Shown: positions 25,029-45,652, numbered from the stretch's first letter. The stretch is 45,652 nt of DNA from Flavobacteriales bacterium (GCA_031378885.1 JANNEQ010000119.1:1-45652); one strand, 5' to 3'. The notes: generated from the letters alone by a model not told the origin. Program-made: numbers and translations.

Positions 25029-25985
25029 ATGAATGTATTTTTACAGGTTTTTTTTATGAAATTGAATTTGCTCATCTTTTTATTGGTTTATGGTGCTCCA
25101 TCACTTTTTTCGCAGGACACAATAATCGACCTGAATTTCGGTAAACTACACCGCTATTCTGATTTTGCTTCAAAATATGTTCAGCCCAGAAACATCGACA
25201 TCTGGATTTCGGATAATTATTGCGCGGACTCTTCTTACAATGTCATATATTTTCAGGACGGACAGAATTTATTTGATCCTGCTTTTGCCACTTCACCTGA
25301 CAAGTCCGAATGGCGCATTGATGAGTGTCTGGACTCAATGTACAGTGCAGATTTAAAGGATCAGATCATCATTGTGGGTATTTGGAGCACTGCCAACAGA
25401 CGTCCTGAATACTATCCGCAAAAACCTTATGAGGCTTTACACATGCCCAATGATGAGAATGTGAAGGCAGATATTGGTGGTGAACCAATAAGCGATATGT
25501 ACCTGAAATTTATTGTAAAAGAACTGAAACCATTCGTGGATAAAAAGTACTCAACCTACAAAACGGCTGCCCATACCTTTATTGCAGGATCTAGTATGGG
25601 AGGCCTTCTCGCCATGTATGCCATTTGCGAATACCCGAAAGTTTTTGGTGGTGCGGCTTGTATTTCTACTCATTGGGTGGGTTGCCCGAAATATAGAAAT
25701 CCGGAAGTTCCATCTACTTTTTTAGCATACCTGAAAGAAAATTGCCCTTCATTGAAAACACATAAATTTTATTTCGATAACGGAACAGAGGGGTTGGAAA
25801 TTGAATATAATGAATGGCAGATCAGGGCTAATTTTATAATGAATGATAAGTGGGCTGGTTATAATAATTGCGTCATTATGAGGGGTTTGGATCATGGCCA
25901 CAACGAAAAAGCATGGGCTTCAAGACTACCATCCGTCCTGAAATTTTTTTTCAAACCAGAGAAATTTGGTGTTGATTGGAAATGA
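25029..25985 (+). CDS. secreted esterase-family alpha/beta hydrolase
   Basis: Signal peptide, and IAGSSMGGLLAMY, a GxSxG nucleophile elbow typical of the putative esterase family. Confidence 0.75.
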   Translation: MNVFLQVFFMKLNLLIFLLVYGAPSLFSQDTIIDLNFGKLHRYSDFASKYVQPRNIDIWISDNYCADSSYNVIYFQDGQNLFDPAFATSPDKSEWRIDECLDSMYSADLKDQIIIVGIWSTANRRPEYYPQKPYEALHMPNDENVKADIGGEPISDMYLKFIVKELKPFVDKKYSTYKTAAHTFIAGSSMGGLLAMYAICEYPKVFGGAACISTHWVGCPKYRNPEVPSTFLAYLKENCPSLKTHKFYFDNGTEGLEIEYNEWQIRANFIMNDKWAGYNNCVIMRGLDHGHNEKAWASRLPSVLKFFFKPEKFGVDWK

Positions 25986-26003
25986 ATTTTCCCTCAGAAT
26001 TTA

Positions 26004-28757
26004 TTACCGCACCACCGTCACCGTTCCATGGCTGTGATCTTCATCCAGCATCGGCTCATTGTTCAGGTTAATAGCCACAATGGTCCAAAAGTACACACCA
26101 TCTGGCACATAATAATCGTCGCCACCTGTCCAAGGTTCTTCGGGATTGGTTGACTCAAATATTTTAACTCCCCAGCGATTAAAAATCTTCAGCTCGTATT
26201 GGGCGGCTCCTCTTACTTTTACTTCAAACACATCATTAATACCATCACTATTCGGTGTGAAAATATTCGGAATAAAAATGGAACTGCAATCCATGAATAC
26301 CACAACTTCATCTTTGGCTACACAAACTCCATCCGAAGCTGTGAGCACATAATTGGTATTCGATTGTGGCGTCACCAGAGCCGAACCATTGCCCAGATCA
26401 TTCAATGTTAGGTTACTTTCCCAAATCAATGTTCCTGTGCCGGTACCAGGAAGCAGAATGCCCAATGTACAATCTCCCACTGTGTCATTGCCTGCATCGA
26501 CATAAGGTGCAGGATGAAAGTTCAATTCATACTCTACTTCAGTAGAACAATTGTCTGCGGTAACAACTGCGCTGTAAGTTCCATCAGTACTTACTGTTAT
26601 AAAATCAGTTTGTTGTCCGTTCGACCATACAACGCTGTCATAAATTCCCTGCACCGATAATTGAACCGGAGTGCCTTCGCATGGATCGGAATTGTCTGCA
26701 AGAATTTGTACGTCAAGAGAGCCATTGAATGTCACTGTAACTTCATCAGTTTGCGGCGGACAGGCATCTGATGTGGCTATTACAGAGTATGTACCTGTTT
26801 GTGTGGCTGTGTATATCTGATTGGTTGCTCCGGGTATGGCCACACCGTTGAAATACCATTGAAGTTCGCCAACAGTTTCGGCGCTCAAATCTACCGGCTC
26901 GCAGGTATTAAAAGATACTCCGGGAGTAATCACCACAGGCAGGGGATCAACATAAATGATGGTCGTTGCCGGGGTTTGTTCTACACATCCATTAGCATCG
27001 GTTGCAACGAGCACATAAGTGCCCGATTCTGATGCCGTAAGAGATGGCGCCGTTTCGCCAATGACTACATCACCATTGAATAGCCATTGATAGGTAGTGT
27101 AAACTTCATTGGCAGAAATTTCCTGAATTTCTCCAGTACAAAAACTGTTCAACCCTTCGAGTGATAAGGATGGATCTGGACTTTGATTAACCGTTATGGT
27201 TATGGATTCTGACTCACCCGGACAGCCTGAAGTGTTGACAACGATGTTGTATTCGCCGGCTTCCGTTACCGCAAGGGTATATGAGTTAGCTCCGGGAATG
27301 ACAACACCATTCAAGTACCATTGATAATCGCTGAAAATTCCATCGGCGAATAAATCGGCCTGTCCATTTGTACAAATTGCCAGATCCTCATTTGGAGTTA
27401 TTGTAACTAATGTAGCACTTTCAAAATTAATTTGGGTAGAGGTTGATGTGGCGCTGCAATTGCCCACAGTAACTTCTACTGTATAAAGCCCACTTTGGGT
27501 GGCTATATAAGTATTGGAATTTGCACCATCGATATCTACTCCATCCAGCATCCATTGGTAAGTATTGAATCCGGCATCAACTGAAAGAAGTTGGTCTGTA
27601 CCCTCGCAAATTGAAATTAATCCGGAAGGCGTGATGTCTAATCCGGTGGAGGAAGCGACTACAACATCATAAGAATTCGAAATGGCCGAACAGCTCCCAT
27701 TGGTTACTTCAACCGAATAATTGCCGGTTGAGGTGGCCGTATAAGAATTACTGGTCTCACCGGGAAGAGCTACTCCATCGAGTAGCCATTGATAGGTGCC
27801 GGTTTCTGTGGTACTGAAAGTTACTTCTTCGTCTTCACAGAATTCCAGTGGGCCTGACGGATCAATAATAGGTTCAGGACTTACGCCAACTGTTATATAA
27901 TCTGTTTCGGTAGTTGTAAATACACCACAGCTTGTAGTAAGTGTAAGTATTACATCAAAATTACCTGGTGTTGAGTAACAAATACCAGTTGGAAATTGGT
28001 CGGGTGAAGTGATTGTTCCACTGCCTTCAAATGTCCACGACCAAGAATCGGCAGTTTCTGTTGAGGTATCGCTAAAATCAATACATTCTCCAACACAAAT
28101 ATTCTGTCCTGTGGCTGAAAATGTTGGAGTAATAATGGTAGCACCATTCGCAGCAGCAGGAGTTGGTGTGCAGGTTTCAAGCCAGGTTGAGCCTGCACCA
28201 CAGGCAAGAGAAATAGAGCAACCTTGTCCACCACCTGTGGGTAGTAAAACAAGATCCGGTGTATCAAGACCATTTACAGAAACACCATTGCAGGTTCCCA
28301 TTCCGGGTGTATTGATGTCCAGCGGAAGTTGGCCGGTTCCCCAATAAACTCCATCTACAAATTGGCCATTCGCATCTATAAGTCCGAGTTGCTCGTTGCC
28401 GTTGGTAAAAATACCAATGCCACTGCCATCCGCACAACCACAAGTGCCCCAATCAAGATCGACAGTAAATCCGGCATTTATACTGCCAAGAGTGAAATAT
28501 GCTCCGGGCGGGAGTATGGTTCCAATAGGAATGGTCACGGTAAAATCTCCGTCGCCAATAACCATACAACCTATATCTACAGGCTCTAAACATGTGTTGT
28601 AAAGTTCAACCCATTCGGCAGTATTGGGCGAATTGGAACCGTCGTTGGGTCCGGCTGCATTAATCATGATTTCATTCAGGACAATGCATTGCGAAAACAA
28701 CTGGTGGCAATTGGTCAGGGCCAGCACGACCATAATTAATCGAAAGTACTTCATCAT
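26004..28757 (-). CDS. large secreted adhesin-like protein: lamin-tail domain, multiple Ig/PKD-like repeats, T9SS type-B (gliding-motility-associated) C-terminal domain
   Basis: N-terminal LTD-like LNEIMINAAGPNDGSNSPNTAEWVELYN. Repeated ~75-aa units (YQWxLNGVxIPGAxxxxYTAT...GxYTVxV). C-terminal FIPNIFTPNSDGINDVFEV...KIFNRWGVKIFES is the CHU_C/type-B sorting domain. The likely start is at the MMKYFRLIMVVLAL signal peptide. Confidence 0.8.
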   Translation of the reverse strand: MMKYFRLIMVVLALTNCHQLFSQCIVLNEIMINAAGPNDGSNSPNTAEWVELYNTCLEPVDIGCMVIGDGDFTVTIPIGTILPPGAYFTLGSINAGFTVDLDWGTCGCADGSGIGIFTNGNEQLGLIDANGQFVDGVYWGTGQLPLDINTPGMGTCNGVSVNGLDTPDLVLLPTGGGQGCSISLACGAGSTWLETCTPTPAAANGATIITPTFSATGQNICVGECIDFSDTSTETADSWSWTFEGSGTITSPDQFPTGICYSTPGNFDVILTLTTSCGVFTTTETDYITVGVSPEPIIDPSGPLEFCEDEEVTFSTTETGTYQWLLDGVALPGETSNSYTATSTGNYSVEVTNGSCSAISNSYDVVVASSTGLDITPSGLISICEGTDQLLSVDAGFNTYQWMLDGVDIDGANSNTYIATQSGLYTVEVTVGNCSATSTSTQINFESATLVTITPNEDLAICTNGQADLFADGIFSDYQWYLNGVVIPGANSYTLAVTEAGEYNIVVNTSGCPGESESITITVNQSPDPSLSLEGLNSFCTGEIQEISANEVYTTYQWLFNGDVVIGETAPSLTASESGTYVLVATDANGCVEQTPATTIIYVDPLPVVITPGVSFNTCEPVDLSAETVGELQWYFNGVAIPGATNQIYTATQTGTYSVIATSDACPPQTDEVTVTFNGSLDVQILADNSDPCEGTPVQLSVQGIYDSVVWSNGQQTDFITVSTDGTYSAVVTADNCSTEVEYELNFHPAPYVDAGNDTVGDCTLGILLPGTGTGTLIWESNLTLNDLGNGSALVTPQSNTNYVLTASDGVCVAKDEVVVFMDCSSIFIPNIFTPNSDGINDVFEVKVRGAAQYELKIFNRWGVKIFESTNPEEPWTGGDDYYVPDGVYFWTIVAINLNNEPMLDEDHSHGTVTVVR

Positions 28758-29244
28758 TTTGTTAGTGGGCAAAAGCGGCGCAAAAGTATTCAACCGCCTA
28801 AAAATCTTGCCTCATGAAAGGTTAACGAATCGTCAACCTTAAAAAGGCCCGCGAATATCGTCATTATCTCACTATGCCTGCGGGCTTGTGTAAAAAATAG
28901 GGAATTGTTTTTTTGTTTTAAAATCAGCTCTTAATTGATTGTAAATTAAACTGTTGTGCGTATTTGGGTTTTCCTGAAAATCATTTAGTTTAATTTGGGC
29001 CACATTCGAAAGGCTCAATGGAAGACTTTTCAGCGCCATTAATGGATGTGGTGAACTGAAAGTCAGAAGAAAACAGTGTCCGTCGGGTTGAATCCTACTG
29101 CTCGATATGGGTCGAATCAAACTGGCATTCACAACCTCTAAGTGGTTTGCATGAAGCAAGAAAATTACATCAGTTATTCCTTAACTTGTGCAGAATGGAT
29201 TAATTTCGCACTTGTCGCTTGTACCTTAATTAAATAAGTTATCT

Positions 29245-29670
29245 ATGAGTAATTCAAATACCAGCTCTTCCAATACTACACAACCACCTGCTACAAAAAG
29301 TAAACTTCGTGGGTGGATCATCAAAATCAGCATTGGAATTCTGCTGGTACTGGGTTTGATTTTCTATTGGAATTACTACAATCCATATAGTGAAGGTGAG
29401 AGAATCGGCAAGGATTTAAAGATTAGCAACAAAGGAAATATTTTTAAAACCTGCGAAGGGTATTTTACGGAAGGTTGCCGCGATGTGGTTTCTAATCCGG
29501 TCACCTTTACATTTTCAGTTGCCGATAGTAAAGTAGAAGAAACACTTTTGCAATTGCAACTAGATCCGAATGCATGCATTCAGGTAACTTACAAGGAATT
29601 CAGGAAAACTTTATTCTGGAGAGGCGATAGCAAGTACATCATTACTAAGGCAAGTAAGTTGGAGAATTGA
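29245..29670 (+). CDS. hypothetical membrane-anchored protein
   Basis: ORF with a Ser/Thr-rich N-terminus, one TM helix and several Cys. Confidence 0.45.
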   Translation: MSNSNTSSSNTTQPPATKSKLRGWIIKISIGILLVLGLIFYWNYYNPYSEGERIGKDLKISNKGNIFKTCEGYFTEGCRDVVSNPVTFTFSVADSKVEETLLQLQLDPNACIQVTYKEFRKTLFWRGDSKYIITKASKLEN

Positions 29671-29772
29671 TCAGATCGAAAGTCTTTGTTTTTAATTAAA
29701 TGCGCGTCATATTATTTAGAAGCTACCGGCGCTTCCTTCAAATTATTTTTTAAATTGTGTCGTGAATTATTT

Positions 29773-30306
29773 TGGATCAACCGCAAAAGTTGGGGAGAGA
29801 TGGAGCAAGTTGAGTGGATTGACTAAGTCCGTAGGACTTATATGTTATTAGCCCCGGCCTGCCCCAACCGAACTGGTTGTGGGGTGGAACCCGGTGGTCC
29901 GATAATAAAAGATGACCCAACAACTCCAGCGAAGTTGAATGTTATGTTCTGATTCCTATTTTTAACCCTCTTGATTTTTTCAAATCGAATTACAATAATG
30001 TTCGACAATTTAAACCCAAATAGACGTTGGATTTTCATTCATTTTTCTCAGGAAAATTTCAATTAGGAAAAATTGAAACAGCAGAACTATAGAAGCCTGG
30101 CTTTTGTTTCGGTAATTCAACTGTCCATTTATCGGTTCAAAATTCAACTCCGTTGGAGTTGTGGGCCGCGCATTTGGGTCTGAGCCACCGGGTTGCACCC
30201 CACAACCAGTTCGGTTGGGGGCAGGCCGGGGTTAACAACCTTAAAGCCTACTTGGTCAATTTTGCAAATCAAAGTCTGTCACTCCCCAACTTTTGCGGTT
30301 GATCCG
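29773..30306. repeat. MITE-like foldback element with long imperfect inverted-repeat arms (~29773..29942 and ~30150..30306) around an AT-rich ~200-bp core
   Basis: The termini GGATCAACCGCAAAAGTTGGGGAG and CTCCCCAACTTTTGCGGTTGATCC are exact reverse complements. The internal GCCCCGGCCTGCCCCAACCGAACTGGTTGTGGGGTG is mirrored at 30200..30236. No ORF lies inside. Related copies are at 44180..44292 and 45091..45205. Confidence 0.75.
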
Positions 30307-30710
30307 TTATTTTGAATAGGTTGAATTTTCTTTAGCCCTATTCTGGCCGGAATTCAGTTTTGTTTTTCAATGAATTTCGATTGACAATGTCAGATCTTCA
30401 TATCCACGAGCTTTCAAATTGTATTTTTCAGGTGTTGTGATAATGTGTAAATAATTCGAATTGGTACCACAACCTGATTTTTTTTTTGAGTTGGATAGGA
30501 CTTTCACAATGTGATAAAGAAGTGTTCTGCCGCAACTCTATTTTATCTTCTGAAAAAACCTTAGGATGAAAATGTTTGTTGATTAAAAAACAGAATCTGG
30601 TGAAAGTAAAAAGTACCTGTGCTGAAATTATTTTTTTCCGGTGCCTTACTAAATTATTTGAAGATAACAGATATGCCTCTGTCTCGTATTGACGGAATTG
30701 AATTTGGGGT

Positions 30711-30888
30711 AAAATGAAATAGCCTATAAGTGTAGAATTGACACTTACAATAATGTGGTCATTCTTTACTGATGATGTTAGAATTTGGCGTATTATTTCG
30801 ATAGAATGAAATAACCTGAAAGTGTAATATTTACACTTACTCTGATTTGGTCATTCTTTACTGATGATGTTAGAATTTGGCGTAATAT
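30711..30888. repeat. tandem direct repeat, 2 x ~93 bp, containing palindromic cores (AAGTGTAGAATTGACACTT and GTGTAATATTTACAC)
   Basis: A 36-bp segment GGTCATTCTTTACTGATGATGTTAGAATTTGGCGTA is identical at 30757..30792 and 30849..30884. The flanking sequence is ~85% similar. It lies in the ORF-free leader upstream of the first giant gene. Confidence 0.7.
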
Positions 30889-31562
30889 AAGGTATAGCAC
30901 AATTCAGGTTATTTAATTACCAAATGGCTGGGGTTCATGAACGTGACAGCATTGACTTAATCGAATTGAGGATATTGATAGGAGTCCAGTGATGACAATA
31001 CCATAAATTGAATGCACAGCGAATCCTTTGTTGCCATTGGTTTACCTTGCTTATGTCTTGTGTGCATTATGTCAGTGACTATTGACGCTGTAATGAATTT
31101 ACGGGATAGATTTATGCGGTTTGACGTGGTGCGTTTTTAGGTTTAGATTGTATGAATTCGGAAAGGCCTGACTTAAATAGAAAAAGCGCATTTGTTCGGA
31201 GTTTTAAAGGGAGATCCAGATTAATATCTCACTTTTTTTCGAATCATTCGTGGTGAAATGCCTGAAAAGAATAATTTTTATTTTGTTTAATCTGAATTCT
31301 TTTTAGACGAATTGCGAAAAATTGTCGTCAAAGTGTATTCGTAAAATAGTTTTCAACATGCGTACATTTACGTGTTTTGTTTTGCAATATTTCGCCACTC
31401 ACAATTGAGAAAACTTCAAGAATAAATGTACGAACTGTCTCTAGTCATCGATTGTAATCATCTCACCAGATTGATCTGCTGTTGTTGCCGGATGTGAACT
31501 TTTTAGTCATATCGGCCTGACTTTGCGGCGCGCACGTTTGAAAGAATGTTCTTCTCTAAGGT

Positions 31563-31623
31563 GATTGCGCGGATGCCGAAAAGCGCTTAACAGAGTAGGT
31601 TACTAAATTTTTATCTAAACACT
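31563..31623 (+). promoter_or_regulatory. conserved 5' leader shared by both giant genes (CCGAAAAGCGC...AACAGAGTAGGT...TTTTTATCTAAACACT ATG)
   Basis: About 60 bp upstream of the ATG are near-identical to 39072..39132 upstream of the second giant gene. The similarity continues through the signal-peptide codons. Confidence 0.4.
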
Positions 31624-34600
31624 ATGTTTAAAAGATTACTGTTGACGGTTACTACCGTCATGATCGCGCTCATTAGTATTAGAGCAGCTCTTCTTCCAGA
31701 TTTAATCCCCTTACTCGACTCTGAAAAATCCGGCATTACCGTCGGGAGTGATGGTAGGATAGATGCATTTTGCGAATATCCCACCTCCCTTTCTGCTACA
31801 TTGCTGGATTGCCCAAGTCACACCTATCAGTTTGGTGTCGTCGGTGGTTCTGGTTCTATCTGTGCCTCTTATTGGGTAATAGATAATACCATTACATTGC
31901 CAGGTGGAATCCCCATGTCCTACGCATTTAGTACACCAGGTTATCACCTGATTTGTGCTAAAATTTATTGTTGTGAAGGTGGCGATGCCATATGGCTATG
32001 TACAGAAATTAACGTTCCGGAATTTTGTTCTTGTGTGCTTCCAACCGAGATTAAGGTGGAGGTTCTGAGTTGTCCTGAGCATTATTATCAGTTCACCGTA
32101 CCTCTTGAGAACGATTTGGTATGCATAGGAAAGTGGGTTGTAGATGGCGTTTCAATTACTGCCGGTGATAATCCTTTCCTTTATGTTCTTACACCTGGAA
32201 CACATACTATTTGTGTACAGGTATATTGCTGCGAGAATCCCAATCAAGCGAGCTTGATTTGTGTGGAGGTTGTAGTTCCTGAATCATGTGAGTGTATACA
32301 TCCCAATGAAATTCAAGTTCAGTTGCTGGACTGTCCCTCACATCAATACCTGTTTGTGCCTTTGGGATTACAATACATTTGCGAATATGATTGGTACGTG
32401 GATGGAGTGTTGGTATCCAACGCAAGTAATTTGATTATTAATCTTACACCAGGCTCTCATGAAATTTGTCTGAAGACTTTTTGCTGTGAGACCGGTGCAG
32501 GTGATGGCATTTGTATTACTATTATTGTTCCTGAAAATTGTGGTTGCGTTCTGCCTGATGTGATAAAGGTAGAAGAACTCAATTGTGCAGAGCATCTCTA
32601 TCAGTTTTTACTACCCAACGTGGGTGATGGAGTTTGTATTGGAAAGTGGATTGTTGATGGAATATCAATTACAGATAACGTCAATCCATTTATTTACAAT
32701 CTCACTCCAGGTGTACATGAAATTTGTGTTCAGTTGTATTGTTGTGAAAATCCTGAGCAAACATTTATTGTTCTATGTACCATTGTGGATGTACCCGAGT
32801 TTTGTCCTTGTGTGCTTCCGGTAGCTATTATGACCACTGAACTTGATTGTCCATCTCACAAGTATGATTTTTCACTTGTGGGCCTTTCCGGTGATGTGTG
32901 CGTGGCATTTTGGCTTGTAGATGGTGTGGTAGATGGTTCTACCGGATACAACCTTACACTTAATCTGACACCGGGTGTGCACGAAATATGCGCCAAAGTA
33001 TATTGCTGCGATTTTAGCGGAGGTACTTATCTGTGCACAACCGTTATTGTTCCCGAAAATTGCTACAGTTGTGTATTCCCTACAGGAATATTGGCCACAG
33101 AAATCAATTGTCCTGAACATTTGTATCAGTTCGATATTATCGGATTGTATGATGCAGTGTGTATCAAAGAATGGGTTATTGATGGAGTAGGTAATGGAAT
33201 TGACCCAACCTCACTTACCATCTCTCTCACTCCGGGTATCCACACAATTTGTGTAAATGTCTATTGTTGTGATGGTTCAAGTGACTTAGTTCAGATTTGC
33301 ACTACTGTTTTTGTTCCCGATAATTGCGATTGTATATTCCCTGAGGGAATAAAGGTAACAGAGCTGAATTGCCCTGAACACCTTTACCAGTTTTCAATTG
33401 TTGGACCGTACTCAGGTATGTGTATCAAAGATTGGTTTGTAGACGGTAGCAATATAAACCAACCATTCGATCCAACTACCTACGTTCTAACTCCAGGATC
33501 GCATGATATATGTCTATACATATACTGCTGTGAAACTGGCGTTGGACAATGGTATTGCGTTACAATTGAGGTTCCGGAGTATTGCGGTTGCGTTTTCCCG
33601 ACTGATATTAATGTGACGGAAATTAGTTGTCCTGAACATTTATATGAGTTCTCACTGGTTGGACCATACTCTGGTATGTGTATCAAAGACTGGTGGGTAG
33701 ATGGCAACAATATCGGTCAACCTTTTGATCCTACAACTTACGTGCTTACACCAGGACCACATACAATATGTGTTTACGTGTATTGCTGTGAGACTGGACA
33801 GGGTATCTGGTTGTGCAAAGACATTGTAGTTCCTGTCTGCGATTGCATTTTACCGGATGGTATCATGGTTACACCACTTACAGGTTGCCCTGATAACAAA
33901 TACCAATTCGGTCTGTGGGGTGGAAGCGGATATTGTATCGCTGATTGGTACGAACCAGGAGTTGCTTCTTATGGCAATTCTTATCCATTGTATCTCACTC
34001 TTTCACCTGGTACACATAAAATTTGTGTTAAGGTATATTGCTGCGAAGATCCTAGTATCAGCACAGAGCTTTGCACAGAGGTGTTCGTACCTTATTGCGA
34101 ATGCATTTTACCGGATGCCATCATGGTTACACCACTTACAGGTTGCCCTGAGAACAAATATCAATTCGGTCTGTGGGGTGGAAGTGGATATTGTATCGCC
34201 GATTGGTACGAACCAGGAGTTGCTTCTTATGGCAATTCTTATCCATTGTATCTCACTCTTTCACCAGGTACACATAAAATTTGTGTTAAGGTGTATTGCT
34301 GTGAAGATCCAAATATCAGCGCAGAGCTTTGCACAGAGGTGTTCGTGCCTTATTGCGAATGCGTTTTACCGGATGCCATCATGGTTACACCACTTACAGG
34401 TTGCCCTGATAACAAATATCAATTCGGTCTGTGGGGTGGAAGTGGATATTGTATCGCTGATTGGTACGAACCAGGAGTTGCTTCTTATGGCAATTCTTAT
34501 CCATTGAATATAGCTCTTTCACCAGGTGTACACAAAATTTGTGTTAAGGTGTATTGCTGTGAAGATCCAAATATCAGCATCGAACTTTGCACAGAAGTAA

Positions 34601-37600
34601 TCGTACCTAATTGCGATTGCGTTTTACCGGATGGTATTGTGGTTATGCCACTTACAGGTTGCCCTGATAACAAATACGAATTCGGTCTGTGGGGTGGAAG
34701 CGGATATTGTATCGCCGGTTGGTACGAACCAGGAGTTGCTTCTTATGGCAATTCTTATCCATTGTATCTCACTCTTTCACCAGGCGTGCATAAAATTTGT
34801 GTTAAGGTGTATTGCTGTGAAAATCCAAGTATCAGCACAGAACTTTGCATAGAGGTGAACGTACCTTATTGCGATTGTGTTTTGCCGGATGCTATTATGG
34901 TTACACCACTTACAGGTTGCCCTGATAACAAATATCAATTCGGTCTGTGGGGTGGAAGCGGATATTGTATCAGCGACTGGTACGAAGGAAGTATTTCTTA
35001 TGGAAATTCGTATCCCCTGATTCTTGCTCTTACTCCTGGCACTCACATCATTTGTGTGAAGTTGTATTGCTGCAACAATCCGAATGTTAGTACTACATTA
35101 TGCACTACTGTTGTTGTTCCAGACTGCCCACCTTGCACATTCCCTGATGGGATCATGGTTACTGCTTTAACAGGTTGCCCTGATAACAAATATGAATTTG
35201 GCCTATGGGGCGGAAGTGGATATTGTATCAGCGATTGGTATGAAGGAAGTATTTCTTACGGAAATTCGTATCCATTACAGATCGCTCTTACACCTGGTAC
35301 GCATATTATTTGTGTGAAGTTGTATTGCTGCGAGAATTCTAACTACAGTATTAATTTATGTGTTACTGTAATTGTGCCTTCTTGCGATTGCGTTCTGCCA
35401 GATGGTATTCTGCATGAAGTGCTTGACTGCCCTAACCACAAATACCAATTCACTCTTTGCGGTGGAAGTGGATATTGTGTACAGCAATGGTGCGACAATG
35501 GTGTGCCAATGGGTAATGATTACCCCTGGAATACTACGTTAACTCCAGGTCTTCACATGATCTGCGTTACAGTTTATTGCTGCGAAAACCCATCTATCCA
35601 GACTGTACTTTGTAAGGAAGTATTTGTTCCTGAATATTGCTGCGTTCTTCCAACTGAAATTGGAGTGAAACGTCTTGCCTGCTCAAATAAATATGAATTC
35701 ACAGCATATTGTGTAGTGGATGATAATGTTTGCTTTGGCAAGTGGTTTGTAGATGGCGACGCAATTGATTCTGGTATTAATCCTTTCACAGTGGAGCTTA
35801 CACCTGGAACACATGAAATCTGTGTTAATGTGTATTGCTGCGACACTGGTCTCGGTACCCAGATTTGTGTGACTGTAGTTGTTCCTGAAGTTTATAATTG
35901 CGTATTGCCTGATGGTATCATGGTAAACGTCTTGGATTGTCCAACACACAAATACGAGTTTACTTTATGGGGCGGAATTGATTATATAGTGAAGCAATGG
36001 TACGTCCAGGGTACTCCCATGGGCGAAGCTTATCCATTTATCACAAATCTTGCTCCCGGTACTTACACAATTTGTGTAGTGGTTTACTGCTGTGAAACCG
36101 GCGAAGCTAAAGAGATGTGCATTGATGTCACTGTTCCTGAATTCTGCTGCGAATTGCCAACAGACATCGGGGTTAAAATACTCGATTGTCCTGGTCACAA
36201 GTATCAGTTCACTGTGCTTTGTCCCGCAGATAATATCTGTTTTGGAAAATGGTCTGTTGATGGTGTGGCAATTGATTCTGGCGTCAATCCATTCATTACA
36301 GGTCTTACTCCTGGTAACCATACTATTTGCGTAACTGTGTACTGCTGCGATTATCCGGACCAATCCAAACTATTGTGTGTGGATGTATACGTTCCGGAAA
36401 ATTGTGATTGCCAATTCCCAAGTGGCATTATGGTCACTGAGTTGGATTGTGCTACTCATACTTACGAATTCGCATTCTGGGATTATAGTAACATTTGCGT
36501 ACTTCAGTGGTACGACAATGGACTACCAATGGGTAATGATTATCCATGGGTAACTACCTTGACTCCTGGCGACCATGAGATTTGTGTGACCTTCTATTGC
36601 TGCGATAATCCTTGCGAAATAGGTTCGTTGTGCACTTCAGTTCACGTTCCTGATTTCTGCTGCAATTTGCCTACTGGCATTGAATACAACTTGCTCGACT
36701 GTGTCGAAGGTTTGTACGAATTCAATTTGGTAGGTGGCAGCGGTGACTTCTGCGTGTCGTACTGGCAGGTGGATGATTATCTGATTGCTTCAACAAGCCC
36801 ATTCCTTATTACATCTCTATTCCCCGGACCACATCATATATGTGCCAAGGTATATTGCTGCAACGGAACAGGTGATGCACAGCTAATCTGTATTGATATC
36901 GTTGTAGAGGGTTGCCCATGTATACTTCCAACCGAAGTTGTTGCAACGCAGCTCGATTGCGCTACCGGTTTATATCAATTCGACCTTATCGGTGGAAATG
37001 ATTACTGGTGTGTGGCTGAGTGGGTTGTTGATGGCAGCGGAATCGGAAGCACAGACAATCCTTTGCTGTACAACCTTACACCTGGAACACATGAAATATG
37101 TGTGAAAGTGTATTGCTGCTATGGTGGCGGTGGATCTGACTACTTGTGCGTGACTGTTGAAGTACCCAATTGTGATTGCGTTTATCCGACGACCATTGAA
37201 TTGATCGCGAAAAATTGCACAGAGCATTTGTACACCTTCGGCTTTGTTGGAGGATCAGATTTCTGCGTGGCATATTGGAATGTAGATAATACAGGGGAAG
37301 TAGAAAGTGGAAATTATACCCCAACATTCTACCTCACTCCAGGCTGGCATACAATCTGTGCTAAAGTATATTGCTGCAATGGCAATGCTGAAGCCGCATT
37401 AATCTGCATTGACTTCTATGTGCCTGAATTCTGCGATTGCGAATTACCAACTGATATTAAGACAACAGTTATTTCCTGCCCTGATCATAAATACCAATTT
37501 GATCTTGTAGGCGGAGATGGAAATCTTTGTATCAAAGACTGGTATGTGGATGGTGCCAATCAAGGGGCTCCATATTCACCTTTTGTGACAACGCTTACAC

Positions 37601-38511
37601 CTGGTATACATGAAGTATGTGTTTACGTATACTGCTGCGATACAGGTGTTGGAGTTTATCTCTGCACTACAGTTGTTGTTCCGGAGAATTGCGACTGCAC
37701 TTATCCGACTGGTATTGCCTTGTTGGGATCCAATTGTCCTGAAGGCTTATATACTTTCGGATTGAATGGTGGCTCAAACTTCTGCATAGCTTATTGGAAA
37801 ATTGATGGTGGAGCAGAAGTGGAAGGTGGAAATTATTCTCCAACTTTCTATCTGGCACCAGGTCCTCATACAATTTGCGTAAAAGTGTATTGCTGCGAGG
37901 GTGGACCTGAGGCAGAGATTATCTGTATTGACTTCGTTGTTCCAGAGAATTGCGAATGCATTCTTCCAACCAAGATTAGTGTGGCCGCACTTACCTGCAA
38001 CACATACCAGTTCGGATTTAACTTCGGAGCGAACTACTGCGTAGCTTATTGGACAATTGACGGTGGAGCTGAAGTGGAAGGTGGAAATTACAATCCTATC
38101 TTCACTCTTTCAGGAGGTCATCATACGATTTGCGCGAAAGTATATTGCTGCGACGGTCTATCTGATGCGGTGCTCATTTGCGTAGAACTTGATGTTCCAT
38201 GCGATATAGCTCCTGGTGGAATGGCAATGGCTCCTGGTAACTCAGGAATAGAAAATCAGCTTAACGAAAAAGTCGAAGCAAAACTATTCCCTGTTCCTAC
38301 AGAGTCTATATTGAACATTTCTTATGATCAATTGGTGAACCTCAAAGAACTTACTGTAATGAACATGATGGGTGAAATCATCGTGCGCAAATCAAATCTG
38401 GGTGACATTAGTACCACCCAATTGGATGTGCAATCATTATCAAGTGGAGTTTATACAGTTACACTCAATGCCAACGGGCATTTGCAACACATCAGTTTCA
38501 TTAAGAAATAA
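31624..38511 (+). CDS. giant secreted Cys-rich repeat protein (2295 aa) with a T9SS type-A C-terminal sorting domain
   Basis: Signal peptide, then ~25 tandem ~85-aa repeats with the consensus C-x-C-x-LP-x-I-(x5)-LDCP-x-H-x-Y-x-F-(x3)-GG-x-G-x-C-(x3)-W-x-VDG-(x~20)-LTPG-x-H-x-ICV-x-VYCC-(x8)-LC-(x2)-V-x-VP, i.e. about 8 Cys per unit. The C-terminal LFPVPTESILNISYDQ...GVYTVTLNANGHLQHISFIKK is a T9SS tail. Confidence 0.9.
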   Translation: MFKRLLLTVTTVMIALISIRAALLPDLIPLLDSEKSGITVGSDGRIDAFCEYPTSLSATLLDCPSHTYQFGVVGGSGSICASYWVIDNTITLPGGIPMSYAFSTPGYHLICAKIYCCEGGDAIWLCTEINVPEFCSCVLPTEIKVEVLSCPEHYYQFTVPLENDLVCIGKWVVDGVSITAGDNPFLYVLTPGTHTICVQVYCCENPNQASLICVEVVVPESCECIHPNEIQVQLLDCPSHQYLFVPLGLQYICEYDWYVDGVLVSNASNLIINLTPGSHEICLKTFCCETGAGDGICITIIVPENCGCVLPDVIKVEELNCAEHLYQFLLPNVGDGVCIGKWIVDGISITDNVNPFIYNLTPGVHEICVQLYCCENPEQTFIVLCTIVDVPEFCPCVLPVAIMTTELDCPSHKYDFSLVGLSGDVCVAFWLVDGVVDGSTGYNLTLNLTPGVHEICAKVYCCDFSGGTYLCTTVIVPENCYSCVFPTGILATEINCPEHLYQFDIIGLYDAVCIKEWVIDGVGNGIDPTSLTISLTPGIHTICVNVYCCDGSSDLVQICTTVFVPDNCDCIFPEGIKVTELNCPEHLYQFSIVGPYSGMCIKDWFVDGSNINQPFDPTTYVLTPGSHDICLYIYCCETGVGQWYCVTIEVPEYCGCVFPTDINVTEISCPEHLYEFSLVGPYSGMCIKDWWVDGNNIGQPFDPTTYVLTPGPHTICVYVYCCETGQGIWLCKDIVVPVCDCILPDGIMVTPLTGCPDNKYQFGLWGGSGYCIADWYEPGVASYGNSYPLYLTLSPGTHKICVKVYCCEDPSISTELCTEVFVPYCECILPDAIMVTPLTGCPENKYQFGLWGGSGYCIADWYEPGVASYGNSYPLYLTLSPGTHKICVKVYCCEDPNISAELCTEVFVPYCECVLPDAIMVTPLTGCPDNKYQFGLWGGSGYCIADWYEPGVASYGNSYPLNIALSPGVHKICVKVYCCEDPNISIELCTEVIVPNCDCVLPDGIVVMPLTGCPDNKYEFGLWGGSGYCIAGWYEPGVASYGNSYPLYLTLSPGVHKICVKVYCCENPSISTELCIEVNVPYCDCVLPDAIMVTPLTGCPDNKYQFGLWGGSGYCISDWYEGSISYGNSYPLILALTPGTHIICVKLYCCNNPNVSTTLCTTVVVPDCPPCTFPDGIMVTALTGCPDNKYEFGLWGGSGYCISDWYEGSISYGNSYPLQIALTPGTHIICVKLYCCENSNYSINLCVTVIVPSCDCVLPDGILHEVLDCPNHKYQFTLCGGSGYCVQQWCDNGVPMGNDYPWNTTLTPGLHMICVTVYCCENPSIQTVLCKEVFVPEYCCVLPTEIGVKRLACSNKYEFTAYCVVDDNVCFGKWFVDGDAIDSGINPFTVELTPGTHEICVNVYCCDTGLGTQICVTVVVPEVYNCVLPDGIMVNVLDCPTHKYEFTLWGGIDYIVKQWYVQGTPMGEAYPFITNLAPGTYTICVVVYCCETGEAKEMCIDVTVPEFCCELPTDIGVKILDCPGHKYQFTVLCPADNICFGKWSVDGVAIDSGVNPFITGLTPGNHTICVTVYCCDYPDQSKLLCVDVYVPENCDCQFPSGIMVTELDCATHTYEFAFWDYSNICVLQWYDNGLPMGNDYPWVTTLTPGDHEICVTFYCCDNPCEIGSLCTSVHVPDFCCNLPTGIEYNLLDCVEGLYEFNLVGGSGDFCVSYWQVDDYLIASTSPFLITSLFPGPHHICAKVYCCNGTGDAQLICIDIVVEGCPCILPTEVVATQLDCATGLYQFDLIGGNDYWCVAEWVVDGSGIGSTDNPLLYNLTPGTHEICVKVYCCYGGGGSDYLCVTVEVPNCDCVYPTTIELIAKNCTEHLYTFGFVGGSDFCVAYWNVDNTGEVESGNYTPTFYLTPGWHTICAKVYCCNGNAEAALICIDFYVPEFCDCELPTDIKTTVISCPDHKYQFDLVGGDGNLCIKDWYVDGANQGAPYSPFVTTLTPGIHEVCVYVYCCDTGVGVYLCTTVVVPENCDCTYPTGIALLGSNCPEGLYTFGLNGGSNFCIAYWKIDGGAEVEGGNYSPTFYLAPGPHTICVKVYCCEGGPEAEIICIDFVVPENCECILPTKISVAALTCNTYQFGFNFGANYCVAYWTIDGGAEVEGGNYNPIFTLSGGHHTICAKVYCCDGLSDAVLICVELDVPCDIAPGGMAMAPGNSGIENQLNEKVEAKLFPVPTESILNISYDQLVNLKELTVMNMMGEIIVRKSNLGDISTTQLDVQSLSSGVYTVTLNANGHLQHISFIKK
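33838..35385 (+). repeat. intragenic tandem array of six 258-bp (86-aa) units at ~90-97% identity
   Basis: Units start at 33838, 34096, 34354, 34612, 34870 and 35128, each encoding C[DE]C[IV]LPD[GA]IMVTPLTGCPDNKYQFGLWGGSGYCI[AS]DWYE...ICVK[VL]YCC. Off-frame ORFs on both strands show the same periodicity. Confidence 0.85.
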
Positions 38512-38606
38512 TATTTCCAAATGAATTGATTCGTGTGATCAATGTAATTCTAACACAAGAAACAACAGCCTTTAAGTCCTGTTGATTCAAGTGAAATTTA
38601 ATAAAA

Positions 38607-38641
38607 TGGCTGCCAGTTTTCTGGCGGCCATTTTTGTTTTT
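38607..38641 (+). terminator. rho-independent terminator after the first giant gene
   Basis: TGGCTGCCAG-TTTT-CTGGCGGCCA hairpin followed by TTTTTGTTTTT. Confidence 0.7.
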
Positions 38642-39132
38642 CTAATCGGTCGCGTTGAACTGTTTTTTTGGATTTAAAGTGGAACTTTAAGCATGTATTT
38701 TATCAGGAATTTCCCCTACGATGAAATCGTATTTTGGCTCGGCAGGCCATTAAATACTTTCGATAATGGCGACCGATGCCCAATAAGTCGAAATTCCATA
38801 AATGGAATGAACGCTCATTTTTTGTAGATGAACTGACTATATTTATCGCTTAAATTGCCAATTCGGATATTTATTAACATTTGTAAGAATCGAACTATTT
38901 TAACGAGATTTACTGCACTCACTGACAAGGAAATTTTTCAAATGCACGGAACCTCTATTTTAATCTTTTCTACCAATCAAAATTATCTTGGTTTTTGTTG
39001 CTGTAAGTAACAATGGATCCGATTGGAATGGATTGTGGTTTTTGAGCTCATTGAATTCTTCTTTGAAAAGAGCGCGCGTCAACCGAAAAGCGCATGAACA
39101 GAGTAGGTAAACAATTTTTTTATCTAAACACT

Positions 39133-42100
39133 ATGTTAAAAAGACTATGTATGACGGTCTGTGCCGTCACCATCGCACTCATTTGCATTAGGGCTTCAAT
39201 TCTCCCCGACATTATTCCCTTATTAAGCTCTGACAATTCTTTTTTAATGCACGAAAATGAGAATTTCCCTTCTGATGAAGGCTCCTCAGGAGATGCAACA
39301 ATCGGTTTGGAGAATTTAAGTGATTGTATTTTGCCAACTAATCTGGAAGTTACTCTTCTTGATTGTAACTCGCATAGCTATTATTTTACTGTTGACAATT
39401 CGAATGGTATTCTTTGTGTTGGAAAGTGGTATGTTGATGGAGTTCCAATTACTTCAGGATTAGAATTCACAGTCAATCTCACTCCAGGTACACACGAAGT
39501 TTGCCTGATCGATGTTATTTGCTGTGCAACCGGCGAAAGTGCCAATGTTTGCGAAACAGTTTTTGTTCCCGAAAATTGTGAATGTATATATCCTGAGGCT
39601 ATTGCGGTTTCAGTAATTGACTGCCTGGGACATAAGTACCATTTCGATTTGATCGGTGGACAAAACTATTGCACAACCCTTTGGTATGACGGAGGCATTC
39701 TGATTGGAAGCGGAACACCACTGGATGTAGTGTTGACTCCAGGCGTTCACTCTATTTGTGTGAAGGTTTATTGCTGCGTAACCAATATTGGTGATGGTTT
39801 GTGCATTGATGTAGTTGTTCCTGAATCATGCTGTGAATTACCTACCCAAATCGAAGCCGTTGTGCTTGACTGTGAATCGCATAAATATGAATTTACAGTT
39901 CCCAACCCAGATGGCGCTTTTTGTTTTGGAAAGTGGTATGTAGATGGCAATGGAGTTACGTCTGGCGTAAATACTTACTCAACTAATCTCACACCCGGTG
40001 TTCACGAAATCTGCGTAAATGTGGAGTGTTGCGAAACGGGCGAAGGTATTGCACTTTGCATCACCGTTGTTGTACCAGAGAACTGTGATTGTGTGGTTCC
40101 AACTGCAATTCTAACTACTATTTTAGATTGTGAATCGCATAAGTACAATTTCTCTTTCGCGGATGGATCTGGTGATCTTTGTGTGGTTTTCTGGTTGGTA
40201 GATAATGATGTTCAAGCTTCTACTGATAATAATATATCCGTTACACTTACACCAGGAACGCATACAATTTGTCTGAAAGTAGTTTGTTGCAATGGATCAG
40301 GTTCCAATTACATCTGCACAGATGTTTTTGTTCCTGAAAATTGTGAATGTCAATATCCAGAGGCCGTTATAGCAACGCAAGTTGACTGTGATAGTCACAA
40401 GTATCAATTCACTTTTGCAGGTGGCAACGGTTTTTGCGTTTCATACTGGAGAATTGATAACGGTCCGGAAATAGAGCAGGGAAGCTATAATCCTATCCTG
40501 GCGCTCACTCCAGGTTGGCACACAATCTGCGCTAAAGTAGAATGCTGCAATGGTGGCCCTGAGGCTGAACTCCGTTGTGTTGATTTATTCGTTCCTGAAA
40601 TATGTGAATGTATTAATCCTACGGATATTGTGACAACTATAATAGACTGCCCCAGCCATAAATATCAATTTGATTTAAGCGGAGGTCAGAATTACTGCGA
40701 TACCCGTTGGTATCTCGACGGATTCCTGGTGCAGATTTCCGCAAATTTCGTAACTACTCTAACACCGGGTACTCACACCATTTGCTCTAAATGGTCATGT
40801 TGTGATGATCCATCTATGGGTGGTTCATTATGCATTGATGTGGTTGTACCTGAAACATGTGGCTGCCAGATTCCAACATCAATTGATTATGTCCTCAATG
40901 ATTGCCAGACAAATGAATACACCTTTACATTGCAAGGTGGTGCTGGCGCTTTCTATGTAATGTTTTGGACAATCGACGGTACACCTCTTGTTGTAAATGA
41001 CCCTGCAATTACAATCACTCTCAGCGCCGGACCTCATACTATCTGCGCAAAATCATTTTGCTTTGAGGAAAATGATGGGGGATGGGTTTGTGTAGATCTT
41101 GTAGTACCCGAACCTTGTGGTTGTATCTGGCCGGGCCAAATCGAAACAGTACTTCTAGACTGCGAAGGACACAAATATGAGTTTACTATACCCAATGCTG
41201 ATGGCTCACTTTGCATTGGCAAATGGTTTATTGATAGCGTTGGAGTTAATACAGGGGCAAATCCTTTCTCTACTATTCTCACTCCGGGCAGTCATACTAT
41301 TTGTGTAGAAGTGAAGTGCTGCGAAACAGGTGAGGCAATTTCAATTTGTACTACCGTTGTTGTACCAGAGAACTGTGATTGCGTGGTACCAACTGCAATT
41401 CTAACTACTATTTTAGATTGTGAATCGCATAAGTATAACTTCTCTTTCGCAGATGGATCAGGCGATCTATGTGTGGTTTTCTGGTTGGTAGATAATGATG
41501 TTCAAGCTTCTACTGATAATAATATATCTATTACACTTACACCTGGAACACATACAATTTGTCTGAAAGTATTTTGTTGCAATGGATCAGGTTCCAATTA
41601 CATCTGCACGACGATTATTGTTCCCGAAAATTGCATCTGCAGCTATCCTACGACGGTTGAAGTTCAGAACTCCAATTGTGTCGATCACTTATACACTTTT
41701 GGATTGATAGGTGGTTCAAATTATTGCATTGATCATTGGAATATTGATGGTGGTGCTGACATTGAGGCTGGAAATTATAATCCAACTTTCAATCTGACTC
41801 CCGGAGTTCATGAAATATGCGTTAAGGTACATTGTTGCGAAGGTGGTATGGAATCGGAATATGTTTGTCTTACTAACTTTGTTGTACCAGAGAACTGTGA
41901 TTGCGTGGTACCAACTGCAATTCTAACTACTATTTTAGTTTGTGAATCACATAAGTATAATTTCTCTTTCGCAGATGGATCAGGCGATCTATGTGTGGCT
42001 TTCTGGTTGGTAGATAATGATGTTCAAGCTTCTACTGATAATAATATATCTATTACACTTACACCGGGAACGCATACAATTTGTCTGAAAGTATATTGTT

Positions 42101-43233: not shown

Positions 43234-43284
43234 TATTTCCAAATGAAATGATTGTCGTGAAAGTATAAAAATTTTATTTTAAGA

Positions 43285-43310
43285 GCCGCCGGAATTCCGG
43301 CGGCTTTTTT
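43285..43310 (+). terminator. rho-independent terminator after the second giant gene
   Basis: GCCGCCGGAATTCCGGCGGC perfect hairpin followed by TTTTTT. Confidence 0.8.
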
Positions 43311-44179
43311 ATGTCATGAATAATTGAACAGTTGGCAGTGTAACCCATTGGTATTTGAAACTTCTTCAAATCCAAAATTACCGATCTCTTTCGAAGTTAA
43401 TCAAGATTTGAAGGGACTGGTTTCACTGTTGATCTGGCTCGTGAATTAGGTTTTCTTAATGTTACATTTTAAAATAATCTAAATGCGATTGGATATAATA
43501 ACACACTAATTCGATTATCACCGGATCTCTCAAAACATAAATTATGACATCGTTGTGTAAATCTTAATTCGAATCGATGAACGAATTTGAAGATTATCTA
43601 GGGAGTTTGCGCATTTTATGGCCTGGGAACGGTGTCCCACTGACCATTGTGGGAGTGGGTAAAAGCTAACAACCCCCAAGTTCTGTCATTCCGAGTTCGA
43701 CTGGTAAAACCAAACCATCCCCACCATTCTGTGGGAACTCATTAGCGTTGACATTATCATTAGTTGAATTCGTATCAAATTATATGGGCCGAGCTTGCTC
43801 TTTGTTCTCATTCGCAATTTCATTTCAACGGGTTAAAACCCTTTCAACGGGTTAAAACCCGTTGCTACAATATGGACCGAGCCAACGGCTCTTTTATCCG
43901 CTTCGGACTTTAACTATGGGTATCCCTCATAGTGCCAGAGGCACGGCCTATATTGTAGCACAGGACTTTAGTCCTGTGTAAAAAGTGCGATAATAATCAG
44001 AGTGCCGTAGGCACGGAACATTTATTTGGGTCGATTGAAAATTGGATTTTTTCGTTGTAAGATACAATTTATCCTCAAATGAAAAGCCTGGGATATCAAG
44101 GCTTTCACCAACTTGTCAATGGCTTACGCATGGTAGCGGAGTGAGGAATCTCACAAAGTCAAAAGAGAGTAGAAAGAGC

Positions 44180-44292
44180 AACCAAGCTTTCGCTAACTTG
44201 TAAATGGAATGCCGGGGCCAATATCATTAAAGCCTGCCTGATGATTTTTCCAAATTAAAGTTACTCCCCAACTTTTACAACTGATCCGTTTT
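44180..44292. repeat. partial copy of the foldback-element arm, in the same orientation as the 30150..30306 arm
   Basis: ...GCCGGGGCCAATATCATTAAAGCCTGCCTGATGATTTTTCCAAATTAAAGTTACTCCCCAACTTTTACAACTGATCCGTT aligns with ...GGCCGGGGTTAACAACCTTAAAGCCTACTTGGTCAATTTTGCAAATCAAAGTCTGTCACTCCCCAACTTTTGCGGTTGATCCGTT. Confidence 0.65.
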
Positions 44293-44343
44293 TTTCATTA
44301 CTTTTATCTTTAGAAACCAGGTTTCCCTTAAACCCAAAATTAC

Positions 44344-45018
44344 ATGGAATCACTCCCTGATTCATCCGTTTTATCTATCCCGAAGCCCTGCGCTATTGCA
44401 TGGGAAAATATGGACAGCCTTGATGCAAAAAGAAAGTATTGCGACCATTGTGCCTCACAGGTACACGACTTTACCAGGGCTTCCTTTGATGAATTTGAAG
44501 AAGTGCAGAGCCGCTATCAGGAAAAGGTCTGCGGTATTTATACCACAGATGATACAGGGCTTATTATCTGGTCGCAACGAATGTCAAAACAACAATTGAT
44601 TCGCGCATTTTTGTTGGCCTTAGTTTTTTGTTTTAATACAAGTTTGTTCAGCTTTGCAGATAAGAATACAGGAATTGAACTGGCAGATTTTACTGAACAA
44701 TACGCGGCCACGGTAGGAGGGAAGTCCACATTTTATGTAAAAGTGCTCAACTACAAAAAGCCTGCATCTGAAGTGAATGTTTTGATAACCGTCAATGGCA
44801 ATATCTCTATTAGCGGCTTGACCGACAAACAGGGAAGATTAACCTTCGAATTGCCCGACAAAATGATGGTTGAAAGTATTCAATTCAAAGTGGAGGGACA
44901 ACTGGCCACGACGCAGGAAGTGGGTAGTTATGCCTATGATGCCTGCAAAAAACTTTATAAACTCAAGTTTCATCATTATAAAAGAAAGCACCTGAGAATG
45001 GCCGGAGCCATGTGGTAA
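44344..45018 (+). CDS. hypothetical protein with an N-terminal Cys/His cluster and one TM helix (224 aa)
   Basis: PKPCAIAW...KRKYCDHCASQVHDF is a CxxC/H-containing zinc-finger-like segment, followed by the hydrophobic LIRAFLLALVFCF. The ORF is bracketed by the two repeat-element copies. It has no transposase hallmarks. Confidence 0.45.
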   Translation: MESLPDSSVLSIPKPCAIAWENMDSLDAKRKYCDHCASQVHDFTRASFDEFEEVQSRYQEKVCGIYTTDDTGLIIWSQRMSKQQLIRAFLLALVFCFNTSLFSFADKNTGIELADFTEQYAATVGGKSTFYVKVLNYKKPASEVNVLITVNGNISISGLTDKQGRLTFELPDKMMVESIQFKVEGQLATTQEVGSYAYDACKKLYKLKFHHYKRKHLRMAGAMW

Positions 45019-45090
45019 GAATTTTATTTTTCTCAGTAGGCCAACTACCGCAAACTACCTGTCTTGCTTTGCCAGAAATTAAGAATTTTT

Positions 45091-45205
45091 CGGATCAACC
45101 GCAAAAGTTGGGGAGAGATGTAGCAGGTTGAGTGGATTGACCATGCAGGCCTTAATTCTATTAGCCGCGGCCTGCCCCAACCGAACTGGTCGTTGGATGA
45201 AACCT
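45091..45205. repeat. copy of the foldback-element arm, in the same orientation as 29773..29900
   Basis: CGGATCAACCGCAAAAGTTGGGGAGAGATGTAGCAGGTTGAGTGGATTGAC...GCCGCGGCCTGCCCCAACCGAACTGGTCGTTGG is ~85% identical to 29773..29885. The central hairpin differs from the 29773 copy but remains self-complementary. Confidence 0.75.
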
Positions 45206-45652
45206 GTGAGTGTTCGAAACCTGCAGAATGAGGCGACAAATCTGAGTTAATGGCCGTCCTCCATATTAAAGAATGAAATCACTAAGATTCGACTTACAAC
45301 GTGAAAAGAATGCATCAGTTCTAATATTACCAGATCTCTCTCCACTTCGATTCGTGCGGTATGGCAAATTGTTGGATGCATTGTTGCGCCTTCTACTATA
45401 TTTTGACTTCACCAGATTCCTCACTCCGCTCCGCTGCGTTTCGGAATGACAGGGCTGTCCTCACCATACAGTGAGGACCATTCGGTGGAGATACAATGCG
45501 CAAAGGCCAATTAATACCAATTCCAAATATAATTTAACCCAAAGGGTAAATTATTTTGTGAATTGGTTATGCCGCCACTAAAAATAAATAGTACTATGAG
45601 GCGTAGCCGAAACCTGTCTTTGCCGGCAGGCAGGTTGGACTATATTATTTTT

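Follow-up and report, generated by a model that had tools for sequence, protein, structure and literature searches.

The question raised by this locus was what the inverted-repeat structure upstream of two tandem giant genes represents, and whether the homologous arms beyond these genes mark the borders of a mobile segment. The window, meaning the whole stretch of DNA that was analysed, is an entire contig of 45652 bp. The analysis showed that the stretch at 29774-30305 is very probably a miniature inverted-repeat transposable element (MITE) that derives from an insertion sequence (IS) of the ISL3 family and is not autonomous, on account of an identical terminal inverted repeat (TIR), 8-bp target-site duplications (TSDs), and the empty site of a sister copy, Y, in relatives. 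A MITE-like or foldback mobile element was one of several readings put forward in the first-pass annotation, and it is the one that stood. The coordinates of the element, its flanks and the related copies are shown in Table 1.

Table 1. Features of the foldback element and of the related copies in the window
Feature	Position	Strand	Observation
Left TSD copy, ATTATTTT	29766..29773	.	7/8 against the right flank GTTATTTT
Left TIR, GGATCAACCGCAAAAGTTGGGGAG	29774..29797	+	Exact; same motif at both termini of the complete ISL3-family elements L051 and L042
Left arm, L-type subterminal sequence, 170 nt, 50% GC	29774..29943	+	75.6% identity with the reverse-complemented right arm
AT-rich non-coding core, 195 nt, 31% GC	29944..30138	.	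No significant intact ORF and no ISL3 tblastn match
Right arm, R-type subterminal sequence, 167 nt, exact TIR at 30282-30305	30139..30305	-	BLASTN and exact match
Right TSD copy, GTTATTTT	30306..30313	.	7/8 against ATTATTTT
Copy C, decayed R-type end of the older element X	44183..44287	-	TIR at 44264-44287 with 4 mismatches
Left TSD copy of Y, AATTTTTC	45084..45091	.	Same 8-mer after the right TIR of Y on L095
Element Y, exact left TIR 45092-45115, L-type arm to 45204	45092..45652	+	Runs off the contig end

The inverted-repeat ends reported earlier at 29773-30306 were real, with a shift of one nucleotide, and the element (arms A on the left and B on the right) spans 532 bp, one base inside each of the former limits. 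A search of the window placed the 24-nt inverted repeat exactly at both ends of this element and once more, on the plus strand, at 45092-45115, and no match was obtained in any of the shuffled windows (0/100). The description of complementary arms of ~170 nt with mismatches around an AT-rich, non-coding core was borne out by BLASTN, in which 29774-29943 aligned with 30305-30139 over 176 columns (75.6% identity, E 1e-25), and by a GC content of 50-53% in the arms and 31% in the core. Only two ORFs (62 and 66 aa), both probably spurious, overlap the element, and all six frames of the arms are interrupted by stop codons, at positions that differ among the copies. The flanks agree at 7/8 positions in T-rich surroundings, and the chance of a match of at least 7/8 at the local composition was ~0.001 (binomial) or 0.0016 (sampled local 8-mers). 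A tblastn search of the window gave no match to an ISL3 or IS256 transposase, and no transposase or recombinase domain was present in the 29 ORFs scanned against Pfam (long ORFs across the window other than giant gene 1, mostly >125 aa). The element as a whole folds into one long hairpin (-257 kcal/mol, compared with -143 +/- 6 for shuffled sequences, z = -18), which is a trivial outcome of its inverted arms.

Homologous arms had also been noted near 44180 and 45091, and both were recovered in the orientations given: copy D (45092-45204, +) was 84.7% identical to the left arm over 118 columns, and copy C (~44183-44287, -) was 74-75% identical to the right arm over ~81 nt, with four mismatches to the TIR in its terminal 24-mer (44264-44287). 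The TIR was identical at 24/24 positions among A, B, and D, while the remaining aligned arms were 64-77% identical; between arms so diverged, a 24-mer would stay intact with a probability of <= 0.002 per pair. Conservation limited to the TIR would be the pattern expected of a transposase-binding site under constraint, with the interior free to drift. The differing yet self-complementary central hairpins that the first-pass annotation had described could not be upheld as such; they lie in different alignment columns, and AAGTCCGTAGGACTT in A results from a 5-nt indel.

Two types of ends were distinguished. The L-type subterminal sequence (AGATGGAGCAAGTTGAGTGGATTGAC...) was common to A, D, and a further locus, L072, and the R-type subterminal sequence (TGAC..TTTGATTTGCAAAATTGAC...) was common to B and C, so that the left and the right end of the family are distinct. 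The L and R arms had diverged before the individual insertions took place. The copy at 29774 is probably a fairly recent insertion from a diverged source lineage, as suggested by its perfect TIRs, and C, with element X to which it belongs, is probably old, as suggested by the four TIR mismatches and internal deletions. At least three elements were counted within ~16 kb, from the four ends in the window and the right end of Y on the contig L095.

A 57-nt module (...CACCAGATTCCTCACTCCGCTCCGCTGCGTTTCGGAATGACA...) was observed inside X (44126-44182) and Y (45383-45439), where its two copies are inverted relative to each other and 81% identical. It was seen again at L014 91-144 beside an arm, and at L060 4955-4993 on an unrelated Cytophagia contig. 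The module may represent a distinct family of short repeats, one that moves along with the ISL3-type ends or inserts next to them.

The family of the ends was identified from other genomes. A scan with the degenerate 24-mer GGATCANNNGNAAAAGTTGGGGAG over one genome per species gave 89 loci, nearly all in Bacteroidota, including the genera Pedobacter, Myroides, Chryseobacterium, Pelobium, Formosa, and Imperialibacter as well as Prolixibacteraceae, Cytophagales, and others. Many of the 89 loci sit tens to a few hundred bases from contig ends, a position typical of insertion sequences. A complete element of 1401 bp with the motif at both ends was present in Chryseobacterium sp. SC28 (L051 803-2203); its larger ORF is DDE_Tnp_ISL3 (Pfam, E 3.9e-51) and its TSD is a perfect 8 bp (CAATTCAC). 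A second complete element, of 1410 bp, was found in Pelobium sp. (L042) with the TSD GGTGTTTG (8/8), and in L076 the motif stands directly 3' of the stop codon of a transposase C-terminus (ORF end ...AESFNAKIKAFRSQFRGVRNVKFFLFRLSKIYG). The same ends also enclose transposase-less elements, namely L021 (347 bp, TSD ATGAAAAC, 8/8), L077 (202 bp, TSD 7/8), L036 (490 bp), and L084 (433 bp). The 24-mer is therefore the TIR of an ISL3-family subgroup that occurs across Bacteroidota and makes 8-bp target duplications. This subgroup has yielded miniature derivatives repeatedly.

No autonomous ISL3 copy with the TIR variant of the window element (GGATCAACCG...) was found, and the only other carriers of the variant were L014 and L072, which are non-coding fragments. 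These two loci, both from one MAG labelled Dolichospermum, were also the only places where the arm sequence occurred elsewhere, and the L072 arm was 94% identical to the left arm of the window. Two metagenome scans, of which one used the exact variant of the TIR and the other an arm-internal pattern, gave 0 hits. In the plasmid collection the MITE had no match, and the L051 IS had only weak, uninformative matches.

Some features of these loci were recorded separately. At L072 380-1724 (JANMEE010000190.1), an IS256-family element (Transposase_mut, E 8e-109) with the TIRs TAGTATCCCACAATGTGTGTAAGTAG / CACTATCCCTCTAAGTGTGTAAATAG is nested in an arm copy. Its transposase, which lies beside the arm, was considered as the parent element and rejected, since the IS256 element has unrelated TIRs of its own and was inserted into the arm. 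The MAG of L072 carries the label Dolichospermum, while nearly all other TIR loci are from Bacteroidota, and bin contamination is a possibility. In Pedobacter cryotolerans contig27 (L076 1-2441), a gene for a tyrosine integrase (Phage_integrase, E 5e-13) and a 159-aa ORF stand between two inverted ISL3 ends; this stand-alone contig of 2.4 kb may represent a composite arrangement.

Comparison with known systems showed both agreement and difference. The complete ISL3 ISs of Bacteroidota (L051, 1401 bp, and L042, 1410 bp) resemble the window element in the TIR (GGATCA...G.AAAAGTTGGGGAG) and the 8-bp TSD, whereas the window element is 532 bp long, lacks a transposase, and has inverted arms of ~170 nt; in the complete ISs, the two ends of an element resemble each other only as far as the TIR (ungapped arm identity ~0.35). 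The transposase-less elements L021, L077, L036, and L084 share the TIR motif and a similar size range, but their interiors are unrelated to the arms of the window (no BLAST match beyond the TIR). The closest published analogue found is a 187-nt MITE of Microcystis aeruginosa with 31-33 identical copies, ISL3-type inverted repeats, and 8-nt direct repeats, which was attributed to ISL3 transposases (PMC11448079). Like the window element, it is non-coding and stem-loop-forming, with ISL3-matching termini and 8-nt repeats (PMC11448079). However, it comes from another phylum and is much shorter, and its TIR (GGCTCTTCG) is an imperfect 9 nt, in contrast to the perfect 24-mer and the long, differentiated arms of the window element (PMC11448079).

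Evidence on insertion was obtained from the sister copies around ORF224, the 224-aa ORF at 44344-45018. Three syntenic loci of relatives (L092, L093, and L094, from JGI metagenomes) were reached through homologues of ORF224 that are 76-84% identical. Window positions 44291-45091 aligned to all three at 77-84%, with limits that coincide exactly with the outer edges of the two TIRs. On the Y side the homology breaks exactly at 45091/45092, where the window reads ...AATTTTTC/GGATCAACC, while the relatives read ...AATTTTTC TAATTGACG, with the 8-mer present once, as in an empty site. Only the first 561 nt of Y lie in the window. Through the plastocyanin-like gene located after this site in the relatives, the right end of Y was recovered from L095, a 1670-bp contig of the sample SRR20217213, which is also the sample of the short-read contigs of the window; the plastocyanin-like orthologue on L095 is 92% identical. 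In the orientation of the window, L095 starts with CATCACTCCCCAACTTTTGCGGCTGATCC/AATTTTTC/TAACTGACGATTTAG..., an R-type end with one TIR mismatch, followed by the 8-mer found before D and by the sequence that comes after the single AATTTTTC of the relatives, and its right junction of Y reads ...GGCTGATCC/AATTTTTC/TAACTGACG. On the right-hand side of ORF224, where Y begins, the sequences compared were GCCAGAAATTGTGAATTTTTC TAATTGACGATTTAG... in the relatives and GCCAGAAATTAAGAATTTTTC/GGATCAACCGC... in the window. The right end on L095 and the single AATTTTTC of the relatives show that Y has a perfect 8-bp TSD and an empty site in three relatives. A 58-aa ORF inside Y returned no record in an exact-protein look-up.

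Element X was less complete. The homology to the relatives resumes right outside the TIR of C, at ~44288-44291, and on the other side ~85 nt of ancestral spacer, from the giant-gene terminator to ORF224, is gone, with 977 nt (43311-44287) in its place. No left end of X was recognisable in 43311-44126, and X is a copy that has decayed or been rearranged. The search also covered a possible large composite element with its start near 38660, where GTTTTTTT/GGATTT resembles a TSD and the start of a TIR; it was rejected as chance in T-rich sequence because the putative TIR matches at only 11-12/24 positions and there is no arm similarity in BLAST. The first-pass annotation had taken the second pair of arms to enclose ORF224, in place of an AT-rich core, in the manner of one element. 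The termini of C and D instead face ORF224, with the arms pointing outward, and are therefore the ends of two different elements, which share one orientation. ORF224 is ordinary chromosomal DNA, ~800 bp, with the right end of X on one side and the left end of Y on the other.

Further observations were made in this region. In ORF224, a weak bMG3-like domain was noted along with a Cys motif at the N-terminus and one predicted hydrophobic helix; the ORF is single in the window and in L094, and is represented by two tandem paralogues (223 + 224 aa) at L092 9263-10675 and L093 10001-11413. In the 977-nt stretch upstream of C, an Acido-Lenti-1 RNA match was found at 43931-43978 (-) with 38.7 bits (gathering score 37), and nearby (43826-43864 and 44000-44015) there are the GC triloop hairpins GTGCC-AGA-GGCAC and GTGCC-GTA-GGCAC together with a tandem CAACGGGTTAAAACCC repeat. 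The region looks like a small palindromic repeat cluster and not like a dedicated sRNA gene.

Taken as an ISL3-derived MITE, the element at 29774-30305 combines a TIR that matches those of autonomous ISL3 ISs (L051, L042, and L076), an 8-bp TSD (7/8 for A/B and 8/8 for the sister Y), and a small size of 532 bp with no coding capacity for a transposase. It would keep in cis what a DDE transposase needs, which is two perfect 24-nt TIRs; an ISL3 transposase produced from another locus of the genome would bind both ends and move the element, and insertion would duplicate 8 bp of the target, here (A/G)TTATTTT. The other arms would come from two more members of this family, inserted in one and the same orientation, X with its decayed right end at 44287 and Y with its left end at 45092. 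The source genome probably holds an active ISL3 transposase with a matching TIR. For the copy at 29774 itself, the corresponding intergenic region of L093, the nearest relative, has no TIR but is too diverged to align, and the reconstructed MITE-less site showed only weak AT-rich similarity to L092 and L093.

The repeats also coincide with breaks in the assembly. In three independent cases, a short-read (Logan) contig of SRR20217213 breaks off 27-30 nt inside the TIR: L091 at window position 29803, L090 at 45118, and L095 at 29 nt into the right end of Y. Breaks of this kind are what repeated sequence produces and hint indirectly at further copies, and the repeat family is a direct cause of assembly fragmentation in the source genome, which explains the break points. 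The 24-nt termini are common to ISL3 elements of Pedobacter, Myroides, Chryseobacterium, Prolixibacteraceae, and other Bacteroidota, and the 24-mer is a convenient probe for Bacteroidota ISL3 ends and their miniature derivatives. The analysis defined a lineage-specific subfamily of MITEs in which left-type and right-type ends differ, and a candidate island border, ncRNA, or phase switch was removed from the list. The finding of a MITE opens no long-standing question.

The possibility that the four copies are recombination sites or composite-transposon ends, delimiting a mobile or invertible island of ~14-15 kb with the giant genes, had been raised from the copies in direct and inverted orientation that flank this segment, and the number and size of the giant genes do vary (2295 + 1379 aa in the window, 1178 aa in L093, and 2806 aa in L092). 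Nevertheless, it was considered very unlikely, as a giant T9SS gene occupies the same syntenic slot in L092, L093, and L094, and these loci (36 kb in total) contained no 24-mer within six mismatches and no arm similarity. The order in L093 (esterase, CHU_C protein, small ORF, giant Por_Secre_tail gene, ORF224 paralogues, and plastocyanin-like gene) matches the gene order of window 25029-45018, and L092 and L094 agree over the parts that they cover. Given this synteny in relatives that lack the repeats, the giant-gene locus is ancestral at its present position and did not arrive between the repeats. Every copy is accounted for by an insertion of its own (TSD of 7/8 for A/B, and 8/8 for Y, with its partner end beyond the window), while the flanks of A and C match at only 6/8 in T-rich sequence. 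B and C, at ~74% over ~81 nt, would also be poor substrates for homologous recombination, and the ORFs scanned in the window included no recombinase. A switch on a smaller scale, in which 29774-30305 is an inverton, that is, an invertible promoter flipped by a recombinase and controlling the downstream giant surface-protein gene, was given a similarly low probability. Phase-variable invertible promoters are common in Bacteroidota, and the window element resembles them in having perfect inverted repeats that frame a short, AT-rich stretch, in its position upstream of a gene for a large surface protein, and in belonging to a genome of this phylum. Its repeats are, however, ISL3 transposon ends with an 8-bp duplication, unlike inversion sites, and no tyrosine or serine recombinase was found nearby, that is, among the 29 ORFs scanned in 45.6 kb. 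The element also lies 1.3 kb upstream of the giant gene, the conserved leader of which (~350 nt) begins only at 31273, and promoter-like matches were not enriched (10 found against 8.1 +/- 3.5 expected).

It is likewise highly improbable that the arms are genes or cis-elements of a structured non-coding RNA conserved for its fold; structured ncRNA genes had been among the options of the first-pass annotation. Local hairpins such as CCCCAACC-GAAC-GGTTGTGGGG are present, and one stem carries a compensatory change in L014 (AACC/GGTT to AACT/AGTT), although one change in six sequences is an anecdote. Against this, the arms had no match in Rfam, either in the whole window at gathering thresholds or in both repeat regions at E <= 1, and the z-scores of single-arm folds ranged from -2.0 to +0.07 on either strand. 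RNAalifold on the six copies (A, B, C, D, L072, and L014) returned 12 consensus pairs, of which one was compensatory, with a positive covariation term of +0.36, and gave no support from covariation. Deletions in L072 and C remove the inner CCCCAACC...GGTTGTGGGG hairpin, and conservation is highest in the unpaired terminal 24-mer, in line with a protein-binding transposon end. A purely local inverted duplication without mobility is extremely unlikely, since these termini recur at three more sites of the window, in another MAG (L014 and L072), and at the ends of ISL3 elements in many genera, and the sister copy Y has an empty site in the relatives and a perfect TSD.

Within the reading as an ISL3-derived MITE, it is very improbable that the ends have been more than passengers, either through insertion and recombination between copies that remodelled the locus, or through arms that now serve as insulators or terminators. 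If the former were true, the remodelling would include the tandem second giant gene with its 99% identical 3' end and the replacement of the spacer upstream of ORF224. In the latter case, the foldback arms of ~170 bp would act as transcriptional insulators or terminators that separate the giant-gene leader from the neighbouring gene.

The surroundings of the element showed several features of their own. The tandem giant genes (31624-38511 and 39094-43233; 2295 and 1379 aa) contain >30 Cys-rich repeats of ~258 nt, and both carry a terminal Por_Secre_tail (T9SS) sorting domain. Over the last 300 nt (38216-38515 and 42938-43237), the two genes are 99% identical. The single gene in L093 and L092 (1178 and 2806 aa, respectively) indicates that the locus varies largely in repeat and gene number. 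The 3' flank and terminator of the giant gene in the relatives match window 38512-38640, after gene 1, and not the sequence after gene 2. A DUF805b RNA motif (RF02914) was found at 31566-31601 (+), just upstream of giant gene 1, with 39.5 bits, above the gathering score. A second one, at 39073-39109 (+) at the start of giant gene 2, scored 33.4 bits, just below the gathering score. This second motif overlaps the first ATG of the listed ORF (39094), and the true start of giant gene 2 may therefore lie further downstream.

Upstream of giant gene 1, the leader of ~350 nt (31273-31623) is 83-86% conserved in L092 and L093. The ORF-free stretch between the MITE and this leader (30306-31272, ~970 nt) is without a counterpart in the relatives, and a direct repeat of 87 nt was observed at 30710-30796 and 30802-30888 (86% identical, 92-nt spacing). 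On the left of the MITE, a 141-aa ORF (29146-29670) matches only the 3' two-thirds of a 230-aa ORF of L093 (3795-4487), and the nucleotide homology reaches ~100 nt upstream of the ATG in the window; the gene of the 141-aa ORF may be 5'-truncated or disrupted in the window.
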